From the IMG/VR virus record IMGVR_UViG_2565956626_000015: 8,254 bases of DNA, one strand, 5' to 3'. Within the stretch, counting starts at the first letter, position 1; each line of letters opens with the position of its first letter. This document shows, in pieces, positions 2,863-8,254 of this stretch. The stretch is from a virus (lineage: Duplodnaviria > Heunggongvirae > Uroviricota > Caudoviricetes). Under the pieces are notes generated by a model that saw only the letters and a program-made list of their open reading frames with translations, was not told the origin of the DNA and made no database searches. The translations under genes were made by a program, and so were the position numbers.

Positions 2863-4968
2863 TTATTGAGCTTCTTTTTGTGATGCCTGTGCGACTCTGG
2901 TGAGCGATTGTGTGACCGTACTGATCGCTCTGTCATATGCTGTGCTACCTTTTGGTGTATTTGCCAGACGTAACAAGGCATTTCGTATAACAGGGCTTTC
3001 GTATGCCTTCGCTGCTCCGCCTACGGCACCAGCAGCAGGAACAACAAACGCAGCTGTTTTTAGCATCCCCGCTAATACTGCTGCGTTTATGATGCCACCA
3101 CCAACTAACAATCCATAAAGCTGCTGACCATTTAAGTTTTGAACGTTCGCTTTTGCCGCGTGTCTTGTATCGTTGAGGTATTTAATAACGCCGTCCAGTT
3201 CCTTTCCATGTACGCCTTTAAAGAAAGTTGCTGATTGCTTCCTGTTCCGGTGTAACGCATTAATAAACTTCTCAACACTGATATTTCCAGACGGATCAGT
3301 CGCCTTATCTACAGCATTCTGAACTATGGCTGCTCGTGCGTTTTGCCTACCATTGTCATCCAGAAGCCTGTAAAGCTGAGAACGTTCTGATGGGCTTTGG
3401 CTAAAAACGAGTTTTGTTACATCCTCAGGCGTGGCCTTGCCGCTGGCTATTGCCTTTTGAACGCGCGTTCTTCCCATCATGTCATTGAATTTAGACCATG
3501 AGCGATCAACCCTTGCCATATTAATGGCTTCGTCTGCTCCAAGATTTTTGGCTACGGCTTTTTTCATATCCGCCGTATATGCCTTGTAGATAATATCGCT
3601 GGCTTTCTGGAGCGTATCTTTATCAACAGTGTCAGATGACGCCATAAATCGCTTTCGAAGATCGGTTCTGTTTTCCCTCGCCAGACGCAGGTCATTTGGT
3701 CCGCTGGTGATATCGTCTTTAAATTGCTGCAAGACTTTTACCGCGGCTCTATCCTGAGATTTGCCCGGGCGGCTTAACACGGCAATCTGATTGTCGATAG
3801 CTTTTACCGTGTTTGAGAGATCGACAGGGGTATCCCCCATAGCGTCAATTATGCGGTTATATCGCTTTCCTGCTGCCTCAATGAATTTTTGTTGCCCTTT
3901 AGTCGCAGATTCATAAAGCTGTTTATCAGAAATGCCACCCAGACCATCGCTAAATGTTCTGACTAAATTTTCTCGTGCTTGTTGTTGATTCAGCCGATTC
4001 TTACCGGTTCCAAAAAAAGGAACTCTTTCGCCTAATGTCTGAGCCTGACTCTGCATAAAGGTTTTATCTTTCAGCATGTCACTGGTCATTAACGGCAGAT
4101 TTCTTTCCGATGCAAAGTCGACAGCAGCCTTTGCTTCAGGCGACATATCACCACGAACAGCCCTCGAAACCGCACTCGCTGTATTTTCCAGCCCCTTACC
4201 AATACCACCAATGCCAGCAGAAATTACCGTTTGTAACGGATCAATATCTTCTCCACCAGCAAGGCTGGTGGCTCCCTGTAGTGCTAAATCTGTAGCTGCT
4301 GATTTTCCTATGGCACCAAGCACCGTTCCAGCCCTGCCCGCTGGTGTAAACGCCAACGCATTAGCAAGAAACGAAGTCAGGTCTTGCGGTGATAAACCCG
4401 GTTTGTTTAGGGCATAATCACCTGATGGCAGAGAAACGATAGTATTCCCCTTCTCATCCTGCCTTAATGTCGCCCCCATTCCCTGGAGAATCTTTTCCTG
4501 AGACGCGTCAGAGCCGAAAAGTTGAGACCATCCAGCCTTTAGGGCATCCATGCTTAGTGAGTTCAATTCTGGGGCAGAGGCGACATTTTGCAGTCTCTCC
4601 ATCTCTGGAGTCATTCGGCTTTCGCCTGTTATAGCATCCCGCATCGCAGCCCCAAGACTGGCTCCCTGTTCTGCTGAACGCTCAAGCCCCTCTCTTTGCT
4701 GAGTAGCTAACTTTGCATACCCTGACGCAAGAGAATTATCAGATGATGTATGTTGAATATTTTGAGTTGCTGATTGGGATCGGTCTATTTCATTCGTTGA
4801 TGGTAGTGGATAGGCAGCATAAAAAGCCTGCTTAGCCTGCTCTACACTTTCTCCGGCTTGCGGGGCCACGACTTCATTGAAGTATTGCTCCTGAGCCTGC
4901 GCTTTTTGTTCTGGTGCTAACGCCTGATACTGTGGAGAGGCGATAACATCTTTCCATGCTTTAGCCAT
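2863..4968 (-). CDS. Phage internal/ejection protein-like, 701 aa (P22 gp16-like by position and composition)
   Basis: Last gene of a four-gene coupled operon. Gln/Ala-rich with a Gly/Ala-rich hydrophobic C-terminal segment (LVGGGIINAAVLAGMLKTAAFVVPAAGAVGGAAKA). Its start overlaps the upstream stop (TAATG). Confidence 0.5.
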   Translation of the reverse strand: MAKAWKDVIASPQYQALAPEQKAQAQEQYFNEVVAPQAGESVEQAKQAFYAAYPLPSTNEIDRSQSATQNIQHTSSDNSLASGYAKLATQQREGLERSAEQGASLGAAMRDAITGESRMTPEMERLQNVASAPELNSLSMDALKAGWSQLFGSDASQEKILQGMGATLRQDEKGNTIVSLPSGDYALNKPGLSPQDLTSFLANALAFTPAGRAGTVLGAIGKSAATDLALQGATSLAGGEDIDPLQTVISAGIGGIGKGLENTASAVSRAVRGDMSPEAKAAVDFASERNLPLMTSDMLKDKTFMQSQAQTLGERVPFFGTGKNRLNQQQARENLVRTFSDGLGGISDKQLYESATKGQQKFIEAAGKRYNRIIDAMGDTPVDLSNTVKAIDNQIAVLSRPGKSQDRAAVKVLQQFKDDITSGPNDLRLARENRTDLRKRFMASSDTVDKDTLQKASDIIYKAYTADMKKAVAKNLGADEAINMARVDRSWSKFNDMMGRTRVQKAIASGKATPEDVTKLVFSQSPSERSQLYRLLDDNGRQNARAAIVQNAVDKATDPSGNISVEKFINALHRNRKQSATFFKGVHGKELDGVIKYLNDTRHAAKANVQNLNGQQLYGLLVGGGIINAAVLAGMLKTAAFVVPAAGAVGGAAKAYESPVIRNALLRLANTPKGSTAYDRAISTVTQSLTRVAQASQKEAQ

Positions 4969-6389
4969 TAATCACCCCATAGTGAAGAAAAGTTACTGCT
5001 GGCTGCTGGCTGTGATACCTGCTCAGATTGCGGCAATGTCTGCGACGAAGAAGAAGTTCCTCTGTCAACTGCTGAAATAACCCGCAAAGCATCATAAGCT
5101 CGACCAGAAGCAGCTTTCAGCGAATTGAACTGGTTTTCCATCTTCCGGCGCTTGGTATCAATGGTTTTTGTGGAGTCGCCAGGCTGAGGGAAATACATTT
5201 GATAATATTTTGACATTTCAGCAGGTACGATAGCTGCCCCTGTTTCCTGACGGAGTATTGCCATTATTGCGTCATTAGCATTAACAACGTATTGCTGCTC
5301 TGTTGGGCTGAGCGTTAAGTTAGCCAGCGTCCCATTACCCAAAGCATTATTAATGACCGCCACTCGCTGTGGGCTAAGCTGGTCTTTCAGTGTATCTATT
5401 GAATCAAGAGCATCCCTAACCCTGTATGCAAATCCAGCAGCTTTTTTAGCCCCTTCTGGCGACTTTTCCATGATCTTTTGGGCTGTTGGCAAAGCTATTG
5501 GACGAAATCCATCTCCAGATATTGGCTGGTTTAGTTTTCCCTGCTCTTCACTTCCGTCTGTGTAGTATTTTGTGACAGTGCCATCATCGTTTTCTCTAAC
5601 ACTCATTAATTTTTTGGCGTTTGTATTAATTCCAGCCGCTGCCGCAAATGCCGCCGCCCCCTCTGGATCCGCCTTTAACATTTGAGCGTACTGATTGTAA
5701 TTCTGCATTGCTGCTGTTGGTGCATATGCTGACGTTAACGCATTTGCTCGGCTAATATCCTGCCCTCTCGCCTGAAGTGCTTCGCCAGCCTGATTGCTGC
5801 GGATTGTCTCTGCCAACTTGCCACGCTCAATATCCCGACCTTCCATTTGATCTTTGATATCGAAATACTTCTCATGACCGAGAGAAAACAGTGCCATACT
5901 ACCAGCAAGCCGCTGGAACCACTGTGGATCATTAACATGCATTTCGGCAACAGACTCAGGAGAAATTCCCAAGCGACGCATTTCATCTTCGTTATCTGCT
6001 ATGAATTTTCCAAATGCCCCAGTTCCGAGCGAAGATGCGATTTGAGCACTAGTCGCAAGATGACCAATAGAATTTCTCTGGTCGTCATCAATAAAGCCCA
6101 TCCCTTTCTGAACGCTTTCAAATTCTTCTGGATACTCAGAAATAAGACTGCGCATTTTGTTTCTGTCTCCAGACTCAAAAGCCCCGGCATATGCTTTCTG
6201 AAACTCTGCTTTACGCTGTTGTTGACGTGCCTGCTGATTAATCTCAGCAACGCCTCTTAGCCCCTGTAGCGCCATTAAACCTACGTTTGGCTGCTGCTGA
6301 TACTGCACAGGCTGAGGAACGGAAGAACGAGGAGCATTATCATTTTGCGGTGCCATGCTAGGCAGCCCGCCAAGTTGCCATGTCGCCAT
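4968..6389 (-). CDS. Phage internal/ejection protein-like, 473 aa (P22 gp20-like by size and position)
   Basis: Overlaps both neighbours by TAATG start/stop. Gln-rich and largely helical in composition. Size is close to P22 gp20 as I recall it (about 471 aa). Confidence 0.5.
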   Translation of the reverse strand: MATWQLGGLPSMAPQNDNAPRSSVPQPVQYQQQPNVGLMALQGLRGVAEINQQARQQQRKAEFQKAYAGAFESGDRNKMRSLISEYPEEFESVQKGMGFIDDDQRNSIGHLATSAQIASSLGTGAFGKFIADNEDEMRRLGISPESVAEMHVNDPQWFQRLAGSMALFSLGHEKYFDIKDQMEGRDIERGKLAETIRSNQAGEALQARGQDISRANALTSAYAPTAAMQNYNQYAQMLKADPEGAAAFAAAAGINTNAKKLMSVRENDDGTVTKYYTDGSEEQGKLNQPISGDGFRPIALPTAQKIMEKSPEGAKKAAGFAYRVRDALDSIDTLKDQLSPQRVAVINNALGNGTLANLTLSPTEQQYVVNANDAIMAILRQETGAAIVPAEMSKYYQMYFPQPGDSTKTIDTKRRKMENQFNSLKAASGRAYDALRVISAVDRGTSSSSQTLPQSEQVSQPAASSNFSSLWGD

Positions 6390-7066
6390 TAGAATCCAAG
6401 CCCCCCAACAAGACCAATAAGCCCACCACCAATAGCGCCGGCCGCAGTACCTATTCCAGGAACAACGGAACCAAGTTGCGCACCCGCTAAAGCGCCTGAT
6501 GCTGCCCCACCAATACCACGCGCAAGACTGGATGGCTGCTGCGCCTGACCTGCACGAATAGCGCCAAGCCCCTGCAAGAGTTGCCCGGTATTATTGGCGT
6601 AGTTTTGCCCTGCTGTTGCCTGCCCTGATGCCGCATTCATCCCGACATTTAGCAGGTTTCCATAATTTTGCATTTGCCCACTAAGCCAATTGTTATAAAG
6701 CATGGGCGCAATGGAAGATAACTGGTTACTGGTAGCTGTTGAGCCAAGCCCCCCGGTAGCTTCTGCTGAGACAAGGTTCTGATAACGGGCCTGATCTGCC
6801 TGTGTTTTATATAAACCAGAACCAAAGAAATCATTCGCGGCTTTATTCTGCCCTTCCAGAGTCATCAGTCCTTGTAGTTGTTGTAAAGCAGGCAATCCGA
6901 CTTCTGCATACGGCTTGAGATTATTCATCACCGTATTCCACTGCTCGCGCTGCAAATCAATTGCCTGCTGCTGGGCCTTCGCCTGAGCTTTAGAGGCACC
7001 ACCATCACCGCCTTTTTCGTATACGGCACGATTGAGATGTTTATGAGCTATATGGGTAATTAACAT
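6389..7066 (-). CDS. Phage internal/ejection protein-like, 225 aa (P22 gp7-like by size and position), with Gly-zipper C-terminus
   Basis: C-terminus GGAASGALAGAQLGSVVPGIGTAAGAIGGGLIGLVGGLGF is a glycine-zipper-like membrane-active segment. Its start overlaps the stop of the upstream gene (ATGTTAA). Confidence 0.5.
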   Translation of the reverse strand: MLITHIAHKHLNRAVYEKGGDGGASKAQAKAQQQAIDLQREQWNTVMNNLKPYAEVGLPALQQLQGLMTLEGQNKAANDFFGSGLYKTQADQARYQNLVSAEATGGLGSTATSNQLSSIAPMLYNNWLSGQMQNYGNLLNVGMNAASGQATAGQNYANNTGQLLQGLGAIRAGQAQQPSSLARGIGGAASGALAGAQLGSVVPGIGTAAGAIGGGLIGLVGGLGF

Positions 7067-7521
7067 TCGCTGAGTTCCTTATATTGTTGCCGAGTTAACT
7101 GATAAAGCGTTACGCCAACTGGCTTACCACATCTGATATATGCATCGGCCAGGTGACCAACACGGGTAGCGCCAAGCAAACGGATAATTGCCCGTCCGTA
7201 TTTGGTGGTGTCAGGAACCATGGTAATGCTGTTAAGGAATGGTGAGTTTTCGAGAAGCCATTTGCAGAATAATCGATGCCCTTGCAGTGCATATTCACCA
7301 CGGAATCCGGGGTCGTACACCGCATGGCATTCAACAACGCTATGCCAGAAGTTACGCACTTCATGAACGCCAGCCAGCACTAATCCTTCGTAGATGCCGA
7401 GATATACCGCATCAGGCTTGATGTAGTACGTGTGCCCCGGCTCAACAATATTTTCGGTATTGCCTGGCTCGTTAAGAAAGGCCTGTAATCGCACAGGGTT
7501 ATCAATAAATTTTAGTTCCAT
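7060..7521 (-). CDS. Hypothetical protein, 153 aa; positional equivalent of P22 gene 14, or alternatively an SOS-controlled antirepressor-like protein
   Basis: ORF is translationally coupled to the downstream 225-aa gene and starts 16 bp after the Arc-like ORF. No recognisable catalytic motif. Confidence 0.6.
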   Translation of the reverse strand: MELKFIDNPVRLQAFLNEPGNTENIVEPGHTYYIKPDAVYLGIYEGLVLAGVHEVRNFWHSVVECHAVYDPGFRGEYALQGHRLFCKWLLENSPFLNSITMVPDTTKYGRAIIRLLGATRVGHLADAYIRCGKPVGVTLYQLTRQQYKELSEC

Positions 7522-7537
7522 GCGATGCCATCCATTT

Positions 7538-7699
7538 TCACATACAGCCTGCCAGCGCCTTATCTATTAACCCTCGTGCAATTTCATGCAGAGTTGGCGC
7601 TACTCCAATTCCTGATTTTTTACGCTGCTCTTCCTGAATTTTCTTTATCGCTTCCATTTGCTTCTCACTTATCAATACCGGCTTTACTGAAATAGCCAT
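7538..7699 (-). CDS. Small Arc/CopG-type RHH DNA-binding protein, 53 aa (MAISVKPVLISEKQMEAIKKIQEEQRKKSGIGVAPTLHEIARGLIDKALAGCM)
   Basis: Not in the supplied ORF track (below its length cutoff); found by hand translation of the minus strand. Shine-Dalgarno AAGGGGG lies 4 nt before the ATG. The beta-strand/helix/G-x-x/helix layout is typical of RHH repressors. Confidence 0.55.
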   Translation of the reverse strand: MAISVKPVLISEKQMEAIKKIQEEQRKKSGIGVAPTLHEIARGLIDKALAGCM

Positions 7700-7712
7700 A
7701 ACGCCCCCTTAG

Positions 7713-7738
7713 AACTGTATAAAACAACAGTTATTATA
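7713..7738 (-). promoter_or_regulatory. LexA (SOS) box-like site CTGT-N8-ACAG abutting a perfect -10 TATAAT, upstream of the Arc-like ORF
   Basis: AACTGTATAAAACAACAGTT (7713-7732) matches the CTGT-N8-ACAG core of the E. coli LexA box consensus TACTGTATATATATACAGTA. The minus-strand TATAAT (complement of 7733-7738) is adjacent, so the box would cover the transcription start. Confidence 0.5.
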
Positions 7739-7790
7739 GTTTCACAAATCGCAATATTCATCATCGTAATTGCAAAATATGAAACAAATA

Positions 7791-7827
7791 GCACAAAAAA
7801 ATGCCACCGCTCAGTAGCTGGTGGCAT
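7791..7827 (-). terminator. Intrinsic terminator (minus strand) upstream of the Arc-like promoter
   Basis: Stem ATGCCACCGCT (7801-7811) pairs with AGC(t)GGTGGCAT (7816-7827) around loop CAGT with one bulge. On the minus strand it is followed by TTTTTTGTGC (complement of 7791-7800). Confidence 0.6.
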
Positions 7828-8020
7828 CGTTCTGTGTGTCAGGTTTTGACAGGTTTTTTATGGACTCTAAAAACTATATTTATGGTGTCGCATTACTCTT
7901 CACGGCAGGCGCTTTTCAGTTCTGCCCTTGCTTCTGGCTCCATTGGTAATTTGATTCGCGATCAGCTATGCGGATGGTTTGCTGAACAGGCATAACAACT
8001 TCTCAGAGGCTGTTTTCTGA

Positions 8021-8039
8021 ACTACGAAAATTTCGTAGT
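8021..8039. promoter_or_regulatory. Perfect 19-bp palindrome ACTACGAAA-A-TTTCGTAGT, operator-like
   Basis: Two 9-bp arms are exact reverse complements. It shares TACGAAA/TTTCGTA half-sites with the second palindrome at 8077-8097. Confidence 0.45.
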
Positions 8040-8076
8040 GCTCACTTTCAAAAACGTCACGCCCTTGTACACAGGA

Positions 8077-8097
8077 TTTTACGAAAGTCTCGTAAAA
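8077..8097. promoter_or_regulatory. Inverted repeat TTTTACGA-aagtc-TCGTAAAA, operator-like
   Basis: Two 8-bp arms are exact reverse complements around a 5-bp spacer, with the same TACGAAA half-site family as 8021-8039. Confidence 0.4.
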
Positions 8098-8147
8098 CAC
8101 TCTCTGATGCCAGCCAGGTGTTGTGCGCATCAATTCAGTCACATTGT

Positions 8148-8188
8148 GTTGGTTCAAAATACCGTGTTGTTGGTTCAGTGTTGGTTCA
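8148..8188 (-). repeat. Iteron array, right end: GTTGGTTCA at 8148-8156, 8169-8177, 8180-8188
   Basis: Three exact copies of the reverse-complement iteron. Copy 8180-8188 mirrors left copy 67-75 exactly; the other two are shifted by about one helical turn relative to the left arm. Confidence 0.8.
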
Positions 8189-8220
8189 ATAAAAAGAATA
8201 AAATCCTTATAAAACAATAC

Positions 8221-8254
8221 TCTTTACAAATTGAACCAACTGAACCAACTGAAC
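8221..8254. repeat. Right terminal inverted repeat, perfect 34-bp partner of 1-34
   Basis: 8221-8254 (TCTTTACAAATTGAACCAACTGAACCAACTGAAC) is the reverse complement of 1-34, with two contiguous TGAACCAAC units (8232-8240, 8241-8249) plus a partial TGAAC. Confidence 0.9.

Follow-up and report, generated by a model that had tools for sequence, protein, structure and literature searches.

The window analysed here is a stretch of 8,254 nucleotides from a Caudoviricetes record (IMG/VR IMGVR_UViG_2565956626_000015), which in the cq9 strain lies inside a chromosomal island flanked by yicC and dinD. E. coli genomes that match its final 755 bases number 337; the matches span most of this length and many are at 100% identity. 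This part of the window is ~99% identical to an already published phage-inducible chromosomal island (PICI), EcCIMP1 of E. coli MP1, which is reported to be induced and transferred by the P22-like phage Kapi1 (PMC11773190). The genes of the island run in the order integrase, HTH regulator (AlpA-type), AntA/B, Ash and TOPRIM-DUF927 primase (919 codons); the segment of interest, 7791-8150, follows, and beyond it lie a 53-codon gene, DUF2824, three genes for P22-type ejection proteins and PerC, every one of them on the minus strand. EcCIMP1 has the same order of genes, which together with the high DNA identity places the island in the EcCIMP1 family of PICIs, a satellite family already known to be mobilised by a P22-like phage. 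The interval between the primase gene and the gene for the 53-aa protein is near-identical in EcCIMP1, including both palindromes, the terminator and the iterons described below; the two islands differ in that EcCIMP1 is integrated at tRNA-Thr near proA and that its iteron array carries one additional 10-bp stretch. Segment 7791-8150 is bounded by the primase gene, whose stop codon lies near 8284, ~30 bp outside the window, and by the 53-codon gene, and RefSeq has no annotated gene here in any of the listed E. coli genomes. An initial annotation had called the segment non-coding, which is correct in that it holds no intact gene, but part of it is decayed coding sequence. We read it as an ordinary, if unannotated, end part of the replication operon in an island family that is already known. 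The features within and beside it are as follows.

7700-7790, minus strand: promoter region of the next operon, outside 7791-8150 (sequence, motif and conservation checks).
7794-7827, minus strand: intrinsic terminator, assigned to the primase (replication) operon (terminator scan and fold).
7840-7859, no strand assigned: tandem CAGGTTTTGA / CAGGTTTTTT, the last 20 bp of a conserved terminator-and-promoter module.
8127-7880, minus strand: decayed fragment of a P1-Ant2 / phrog_1726-type anti-repressor gene (BLASTP, blastn, alignment).
7966-8127, minus strand: first open frame of this fragment (53 codons, MRTTPGWHQRVFYETFVKSCVQGRDVFESEHYEIFVVQKTASEKLLCLFSKPSA), which holds both palindromes (BLASTP).
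7997-8004, minus strand: 1-nt deletion, TCTG-AGAAG compared with TCTGAAAAAG in intact genes (alignment).
7880-7993, minus strand: continuation of the fragment in the shifted frame, where MPVQQTIRIADRES corresponds to MSIKQALRVAARES of the intact genes.
8021-8039, no strand assigned: palindrome 1, ACTACGAAA-A-TTTCGTAGT, perfect, with 9-bp arms, reading H-Y-E-I-F-V-V on the minus strand.
8077-8097, no strand assigned: palindrome 2, TTTTACGA-AAGTC-TCGTAAAA, with perfect 8-bp arms, reading F-Y-E-T-F-V-K on the minus strand.
8148-8254, no strand assigned: replication-origin-like iteron array (repeat counts and comparison of islands).

The minus-strand terminator that had been noted at 7791-7827 was recovered by our terminator scan as a GC-rich, extendable stem of 8 bp (7801-7808 / 7820-7827) with a loop of 11 nt (7809-7819), followed by a tract of 7 U on the minus strand (7794-7800). 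Its fold (-23.2 kcal/mol, z = -5.5) was equalled in 0 of 200 shuffles, and among the island copies the stem is invariant and the loop variable. The terminator had seemed to end a transcript with no convincing ORF upstream, an appearance that arises because the 919-codon primase gene ends just past the window; the primase stop lies on the same strand ~460 nt 5' of the terminator, and the scan found no other minus-strand terminator between the two. Thus both the stem-loop with its U-tract and a co-oriented upstream transcription unit, as expected of an intrinsic terminator, are present, and the terminator is predicted to be reached by read-through from the primase operon. In such a transcript the polymerase would cross the origin iterons and then ~245 bp of dead gene fragment before stopping at 7827-7794, and the terminator would insulate the LexA-controlled promoter of the operon that follows.

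That promoter is evident in the window. It comprises an inverted repeat (7739-7755 / 7769-7785), a -10 element TATAAT at 7733-7738 and, abutting it, a LexA box, CTGTATAAAACAACAG, at 7715-7730, which occurs once in the window, followed by a Shine-Dalgarno GGGGG and an ATG at 7699. In diverged relatives a LexA box stands at the same distance and has a different interior. The next operon probably starts at this promoter and would encode a small ribbon-helix-helix-like protein together with the P22-type DNA-ejection proteins. With these assignments the EcCIMP1 family gains a first map of this region, comprising a likely origin, an operon boundary and a putative SOS-controlled promoter for the ejection-protein operon.

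On the primase side, the segment runs into an array of 9-bp iterons arranged as three plus three inverted copies: GTTGGTTCA occurs at 8148-8156, 8169-8177 and 8180-8188, an AT-rich spacer of 43 bp occupies 8189-8231, and three copies of TGAACCAAC extend from 8232 to ~8258, past the end of the window, so that the first iteron alone falls within 7791-8150. The island contains 12 exact copies of the iteron where 0.26 are expected, and a second inverted array lies 8.1 kb away. The array lies directly downstream of the TOPRIM-DUF927 primase gene. A DUF927 relative has the same iterons, and islands of the DUF5906 and P4-primase types have other iterons in the same place. The iterons differ with the replication gene, and we read 8148 onward as a putative replication origin. 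The origins of SaPIs and PICIs consist of iterons around an AT-rich stretch just 3' of the primase-replication gene, and the array resembles them in having gene-specific iterons and an AT-rich spacer after a primase gene; the second inverted array recalls the ori and crr of P4. The palindromes of the window do not move with the replication module. A term search of the EcCIMP1 paper's text returned no mention of a replication origin (PMC11773190).

We compared four island types that have the 53-codon gene in common and differ in their replication genes. The stretch 7700-7859, with the promoter region, the terminator and the CAGGTTTT repeat, is kept in all four. The middle segment, 7860-8101, which contains both palindromes, is present in two types, replaced in the third (where a 153-codon ORF takes the place of 7905-8090) and absent from the fourth, which keeps 7700-7859 alone. 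To judge by this comparison, segment 7860-8101 is dispensable, since related island types replace it or do without it. The homology breakpoints of two island types fall within ~10 bp of palindrome 2, so that the island palindromes appear to coincide with recombination joints.

The palindromes themselves are real. The initial annotation had listed a perfect 19-bp palindrome at 8021-8039 and a second dyad at 8077-8097 with the same half-site, and both stand, the first with 9-bp arms. One perfect palindrome is not rare, as arms of at least 8 bp occur about once per 8-kb shuffle and 9-bp arms in 21% of shuffles, but two with a common half-site TACGAAA..TCGTA (TACGAAANNNTCGTA) are well beyond chance, giving 4 strand-matches against 0.01 expected and arising in 0 of 200 shuffles. 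The core TAC GAA nnn TTC GTA is self-complementary. Less can be made of the tandem 10-bp repeat reported at 7840-7859: it is present, with 9 of 10 bases identical at a period of 10, but is not significant alone, as ~21% of shuffled windows have an equal one, and its local fold is unremarkable (z = -0.8). The repeat is kept, with variants (CAAGTTTTGACAAGTTT), in islands of three other replication modules.

The origin of the palindromes became apparent from homology. By blastn, 102 nt at 7950-8051 are 75% identical to a gene that a P22-like prophage carries in its immI region, and the intact 242-aa product of this gene matches the phrog_1726 'anti-repressor' family at 1.4e-100 and is related to P1 Ant2. 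The minus-strand translation reads ..RDVFESEHYEIFVVQKTASEK and then, after the 1-nt deletion, continues as VVMPVQQTIRIADRES in another frame, the counterpart being KDELEGEHYEIFVVQKSNKTTSEKVVMSIKQALRVAARES; once this frameshift is repaired, BLASTP gives 63% identity over 40 aa (E = 3e-14) against an intact 242-aa phrog_1726 protein. The frameshift is common to all island copies examined, and the predicted products all end in ..EKLLCLFSKPSA. Matching residues ~49-88 of the family proteins, the fragment retains ~50 homologous codons and lacks the first ~40 and last ~150 codons of the intact gene of ~240 aa. It is thus homologous to the P1 Ant2 / phrog_1726 family, whose members occur in P22-like, Stx, Klebsiella, Acinetobacter and Vibrio phages, and has the same palindrome as they do, but by its broken frame it classes as a pseudogene fragment and not as a member gene. 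From those genes the island copy differs in being cut at both ends and frameshifted, in carrying a second palindrome of another allele type and in having an unrelated tail. This tail (..NYQWSQKQGQN-stop-KAPAVKSNATP-stop) is common to the 153-aa ORF found at the same site in another island type, which suggests that a second lost gene has left its 3' end joined to the dead fragment. A protein database search with the repaired fragment returned 6 matches, each of them an ORF called from this pseudogene in E. coli.

Palindrome 1 has exactly the sequence found in intact anti-repressor genes of P22-like prophages; around it 33 consecutive bases are identical in an alignment that is otherwise at 75%, and it occupies the fixed codon position that follows the D-E-L-x-G-E motif in the family, DVFESE being the island's counterpart of DELEGE. 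Palindrome 2 belongs to the 'TTTTAC..GTAAAA' allele type known from intact genes and has no counterpart at its position in the intact gene. The island therefore seems to hold two partial gene copies, with palindromes of different allele types.

Whether the open frame still serves as a gene bears on how this fragment is read. If it did, either the 8127-7966 ORF (53 aa) or an ORF of 25-39 aa from 7993 would make a functional small protein; the first frame stays open, and ends in one and the same C-terminus, in every copy, and a few submitters annotate it as 'hypothetical protein'. Across ~10 island copies, however, the 8127-7966 frame has accumulated 8 non-synonymous and 2 synonymous differences, with 2 of 10 at third codon positions, as against 12 of 22 in the neighbouring 53-codon gene, the pattern of a real gene. 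Moreover, the ATG at 8127 has no Shine-Dalgarno sequence, the N-terminus is wholly different between island types, the stop of the second frame (7916-7918) is polymorphic between TGA and TGG among the copies, and RefSeq calls no protein for a frame that spans only about residues 40-90 of a 242-aa protein. We regard a functional small protein as extremely unlikely. The initial annotation had held out translation and protein-level conservation of this ORF as the result that would change its reading; homology to real proteins was indeed found, but in a frame that is shifted and has changed neutrally. Because the fragment is missing or replaced in related islands and its open frame changes neutrally, the island copy is most likely a relic. 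It has 15 variable sites in 242 nt among the ~10 island copies, a level not above that of its neighbours; these copies are too alike to prove the neutrality of the fragment DNA as such.

The initial annotation had offered, as one reading of the same segment, a small regulatory RNA terminated at 7791. Such an RNA would end at the terminator (7794-7827), would be transcribed from its own promoter or cut from the 3' UTR of the primase mRNA, and would have the palindromes as its stem-loops. The terminator is strong, 7785-8150 folds on the minus strand somewhat more stably than shuffled sequences do (z = -2.6), both palindromes form hairpins (-8.6 and -9.9 kcal/mol), and in two island variants the C to T changes retain G.U pairs in the minus-strand RNA. 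Those changes, however, are also synonymous and of the commonest mutation kind, wobble pairs across the gene family show no sense-strand preference, and the segment is missing or replaced in related islands that retain the terminator, which the predicted primase read-through would in any case reach. A strict scan for sigma-70-like promoters on either strand found none, which is weak evidence because the same scan misses the evident promoter of the next operon. Rfam gives no match in 7791-8150 up to E = 1, and its sole match at that threshold over the whole window is a spurious microRNA on the inverted iterons of the putative origin; on the P22, P1 and Erwinia phage loci it finds sar and C4, and nothing at the palindrome. 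Taken together, these observations make a regulatory RNA very unlikely. The island copies are too similar to one another to show covariation in an RNA structure.

The other initial proposal, a multi-operator control region, fares little better for the island. The repeated half-site of an operator array is there, but no promoter adjoins it: the palindromes, which are 57 bp apart, lie ~285-360 bp upstream of the -10 element of the next promoter with the terminator in between, the module that carries them is lacking or replaced in relatives, and they were inherited with a gene fragment. Palindrome 1 is invariant in most of the ~10 island copies. The palindromes of island copies nevertheless show decay, with a C to T change in one arm, an uncompensated swap in the left arm and recombination at the centre. 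Since copies are beginning to decay or recombine at the centre, we treat the island palindromes, with moderate confidence, as inherited relics and not as island operators. Segment 7791-8150 would then be the untranslated 3' end of an EcCIMP1-family primase operon with relic palindromes, an explanation that as a whole we consider probable. What looked like a regulatory-RNA gene or an operator array would thereby resolve into the edge of an origin, a dead gene fragment and an operon terminator. Two adjacent palindromes of different allele types, both perfect, are more than one random remnant would leave, and the remnants found in P22-like phages are centred on the palindrome, as though a function might outlive the loss of the gene.

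The palindrome was then followed across the anti-repressor gene family. We compared 90 distinct intact genes, taken from phages that infect E. coli, Citrobacter, Erwinia, Klebsiella and Acinetobacter: 81 have perfect arms of at least 8 bp at the same position, where resampled synonymous codons yield arms averaging 5.1 bp. Further homologues, checked singly, showed weaker, 7-bp versions in one Vibrio phage and in an E. coli Drexlerviridae phage, and none in a second Vibrio phage and a Pseudomonas phage; P1 and a few others have lost the palindrome. In 23 ungapped genes, 7 of 10 pairs have changed on both sides, 91.7% of cells are paired (74% when shuffled and 29-50% when slid), and the covariation score is 0.488 (0.16 shuffled, 0.02-0.10 slid). 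The two arms vary together, in codon pairs that are reverse complements (H/V, T/G, F/K, G/T, N/V, E/F, K/F and T/S), and the turnover of palindrome sequence is complete, as in GACCTACAAAATTTTTGTAGGTC, GTTTTACACTAAAAGTGTAAAAC, AACCGGAAAAAAATTCCGGTT and AGCGGTAAAAAGTTTTTACCGCT. The exact 23-mer turns up in IMG/VR not only in intact genes and in the islands but also in P22-like phages, in non-coding remnants that lie between ant and the tailspike gene. By these comparisons the palindrome marks one fixed codon position, at which intact genes maintain it with compensating changes in both arms. A literature search on the palindrome sequence found no description of it, and a family-wide palindrome within the coding sequence appears to be previously undescribed. 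The operator idea survives to this extent, that the same palindrome is under constraint in the intact genes of the family.

The form of the palindrome narrows what it could be. Of 31 distinct versions, 18 are symmetric to the very centre, and the internal non-Watson-Crick pairs (A.C 5, G.T 2) show no sense-strand wobble bias; this central symmetry and lack of bias suit a dimer site in double-stranded DNA, or else templated mutation of a quasi-palindrome, more than they suit a hairpin in RNA. Under the second of these, the palindrome would be a functionless, self-perpetuating quasi-palindrome in which template switching copies changes from arm to arm, within a protein loop that tolerates nearly any residues. 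Symmetry that reaches the centre, where a hairpin could not pair, is as expected from such a process; so are the facts that no part of the protein varies more than the segment encoded here, that remnants outside genes are also perfect and that recombination and mosaic joints cluster at palindromes. That it has stayed in a single place in phages that infect E. coli, Klebsiella, Erwinia, Acinetobacter and Vibrio, despite complete sequence turnover and protein identity as low as ~45%, would however need very long maintenance, and P1 and a few others did lose it. We rate this as possible but on balance unlikely. It concerns the gene family and is compatible with the preferred explanation of the window as an operon tail.

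If the first alternative applied, the palindrome would be a DNA-level element of anti-repressor-type coding sequences that the satellite island has put to use. In the genes it would act as an auto-operator or as the target of a partner protein, with half-sites that co-evolve and so force reverse-complement changes in codon pairs; the island would keep two sites, of two specificities, beside its origin to bind or sense helper-phage proteins. As a whole we hold this only tentatively, and think it improbable.

For the island itself, a working site would mean that its palindromes are decoy or sensor sites for a helper Ant2-type protein or for the island's ribbon-helix-helix-like protein, linking helper infection to island replication or to transcription near the origin; the helper protein would bind the palindrome in its own gene. 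Roi of HK022, reportedly described by Clerget and Boccard in 1996 as binding a site within its own gene, would be a precedent. Several observations agree with it, namely the nucleic-acid-level constraint on the palindrome in intact genes, the 18 centrally symmetric versions and the absent wobble bias, which favour recognition of double-stranded DNA over an RNA hairpin, the placement of two sites 57 bp apart beside the origin, and the palindrome-centred remnants retained by P22-like phages. Yet the 11 phage loci searched have no second copy within 2.5 kb and hence no looping pair, islands related to this one work although they have lost the module or retain one half of a palindrome, and the island copies show the decay described above (a C to T arm change and an uncompensated left-arm swap). 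HK022 Roi, moreover, shows no homology in the domain concerned and no strong palindrome occurs in its gene, and searches of Pfam, NCBIfam and PDB sequences with the family and with the 53-aa and 153-aa proteins gave nothing significant and no DNA-binding domain. A working site in the island is, in our view, quite unlikely, and we keep to the relic reading there.

Several more specific candidates for the family palindrome were rejected. A terminator role is out, as no allele has a rightly placed U- or A-tract, and a looping-operator pair found no second copy within 2.5 kb in 11 phage loci. The palindrome does not precede an internal Ant2 start in P1: it lies well inside Ant2, because the 242-aa protein is the counterpart of the whole of Ant2. 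HK022 Roi is not a direct homologue, its N-terminal half being unrelated and its gene having no palindrome arms >6 bp, and core sites for an invertase (hix/gix-like) or a tyrosine recombinase were dropped because neither the half-sites nor a central spacer of 1-5 bp fits them. Among known systems, the intragenic operators (lacO2 and the Roi site in roi) and the antisense RNAs that control anti-repressors (sar of P22 and C4 of P1) offer parallels in dyad symmetry and in a cis-element placed in or next to a gene of the anti-repressor type. They differ in that no partner operator lies near the palindrome, that Roi is not homologous in this domain and that Rfam, which finds sar and C4, sees nothing at the palindrome.

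The family palindrome is the point that might surprise a phage specialist, and it mainly concerns genes outside the window: it is kept in ~90% of intact genes, survives in P22 remnants and sits at recombination joints. If functional, it would give phage immunity-bypass genes a control or recombination element that has so far gone unrecognised; if functionless, it would be a clear natural case of a self-maintaining quasi-palindrome that shapes protein sequence.

A scan of species-representative genomes with the N-terminal domain of the family yielded 4 loci. In CUS-3-type phages the site between ant and tailspike gene 9 is empty and annotated 'boundary sequence'. In P22 relatives the remnants at this site are 78-110 nt long and non-coding, with the same palindrome at the centre in four covarying versions; unlike the island fragment, they stand between direct repeats of ~25-40 nt, upstream of where the tailspike gene starts, and contain a single palindrome. 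P22 itself carries one such remnant, in which the palindrome has diverged yet is still perfect.

Upstream of the ejection-protein operon of the satellite, the following features were located in the window, with the genes that follow them on the minus strand:

7715-7738, minus strand: LexA box CTGTATAAAACAACAG with the -10 element TATAAT
7739-7755 and 7769-7785: 17-nt inverted repeat GTTTCACAAATCGCAAT / ATTGCAAAATATGAAAC, its arms 76% complementary
7538-7699, minus strand: gene for a 53-aa product (MAISVKPVLISEKQMEAIKKIQEEQRKK..TLHEIARGLIDKAL)
2863-7521, minus strand: homologues of P22 genes 14 (DUF2824), 7, 20 and 16 (ejection proteins)

The LexA box lies immediately downstream of a perfect -10 on the minus strand, and the two together precede the ejection-protein operon and its 53-codon neighbour. 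Diverged relatives carry a box at equal distance with a different interior (CTGTATCGTTATACAG), which suggests that the ejection-protein operon of this satellite is under SOS control. The 17-nt inverted repeat covers the -35 region of this promoter and is a candidate operator. The 53-aa protein had no match in Pfam, PHROG or NCBIfam; judged by eye from its sequence, it looks like a ribbon-helix-helix protein (Arc/CopG-like), and its gene moves together with the terminator-and-promoter module in four island types. In the window's copy of the island, the annotation gives the homologue of gene 16 as truncated. For these P22-type homologues, the paper on the EcCIMP1 island suggests a role in packaging (PMC11773190).

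The dead fragment of an anti-repressor-type gene that lies upstream of this promoter is replaced in one island type, and a remnant of the same gene is found in phage P22 itself:

L003 (strain FCI23), 6181-6642: intact 153-aa ORF in place of the dead fragment
L055 (phage P22), 1605-1772: remnant of that anti-repressor-type gene, lying between ant and gene 9

The 153-aa ORF had no family match and has only its last ~14 codons (..KSNATP) in common with the window. In one island copy, the IMG/VR record L018, the sequence is wholly divergent directly past the TAA in the tail of the dead fragment (equivalent to ~7880 in the window), probably owing to an insertion sequence. In P22 and many of its relatives (L010, L066, L121 and others), a remnant of 78-110 nt lies upstream of the tailspike start, with direct repeats of ~25-40 nt (CACCGTAGCCAYGCTGCGGCGAT..) on both sides. 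In CUS-3-type phages the site is empty and is labelled 'boundary sequence' in the annotation.

Within the dead fragment, palindrome 1 is altered in one island copy, the IMG/VR record L361, where, at the equivalent of 8036-8044, the left arm has been swapped for the GAGACCTAC allele and the right arm is unaltered; this has the appearance of a recombination joint in the middle of the palindrome. Elsewhere in the window, such extra palindromes occur about as often as expected by chance:

171-187 and 4253-4271: two more palindromes, both perfect, with arms of 8 bp

Both ends of the window carry iterons:

1-122 and 8145-8254 (to ~8258 in L001): GTTGGTTCA iteron array of ~125 bp, in two inverted copies

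The inverted arrays are spaced 8.1 kb apart, enclosing the ejection-protein and accessory genes, and both are present in EcCIMP1 as well. As a pair they look similar to the P4 ori plus crr; alternatively, the arrangement resembles a segment with inverted repeats at its flanks. In the related island of strain 19AR0656 (L257, 2153-4753), an SSB gene is present in three tandem partial copies, which sit downstream of a putative origin of the same type as the window's iteron array.
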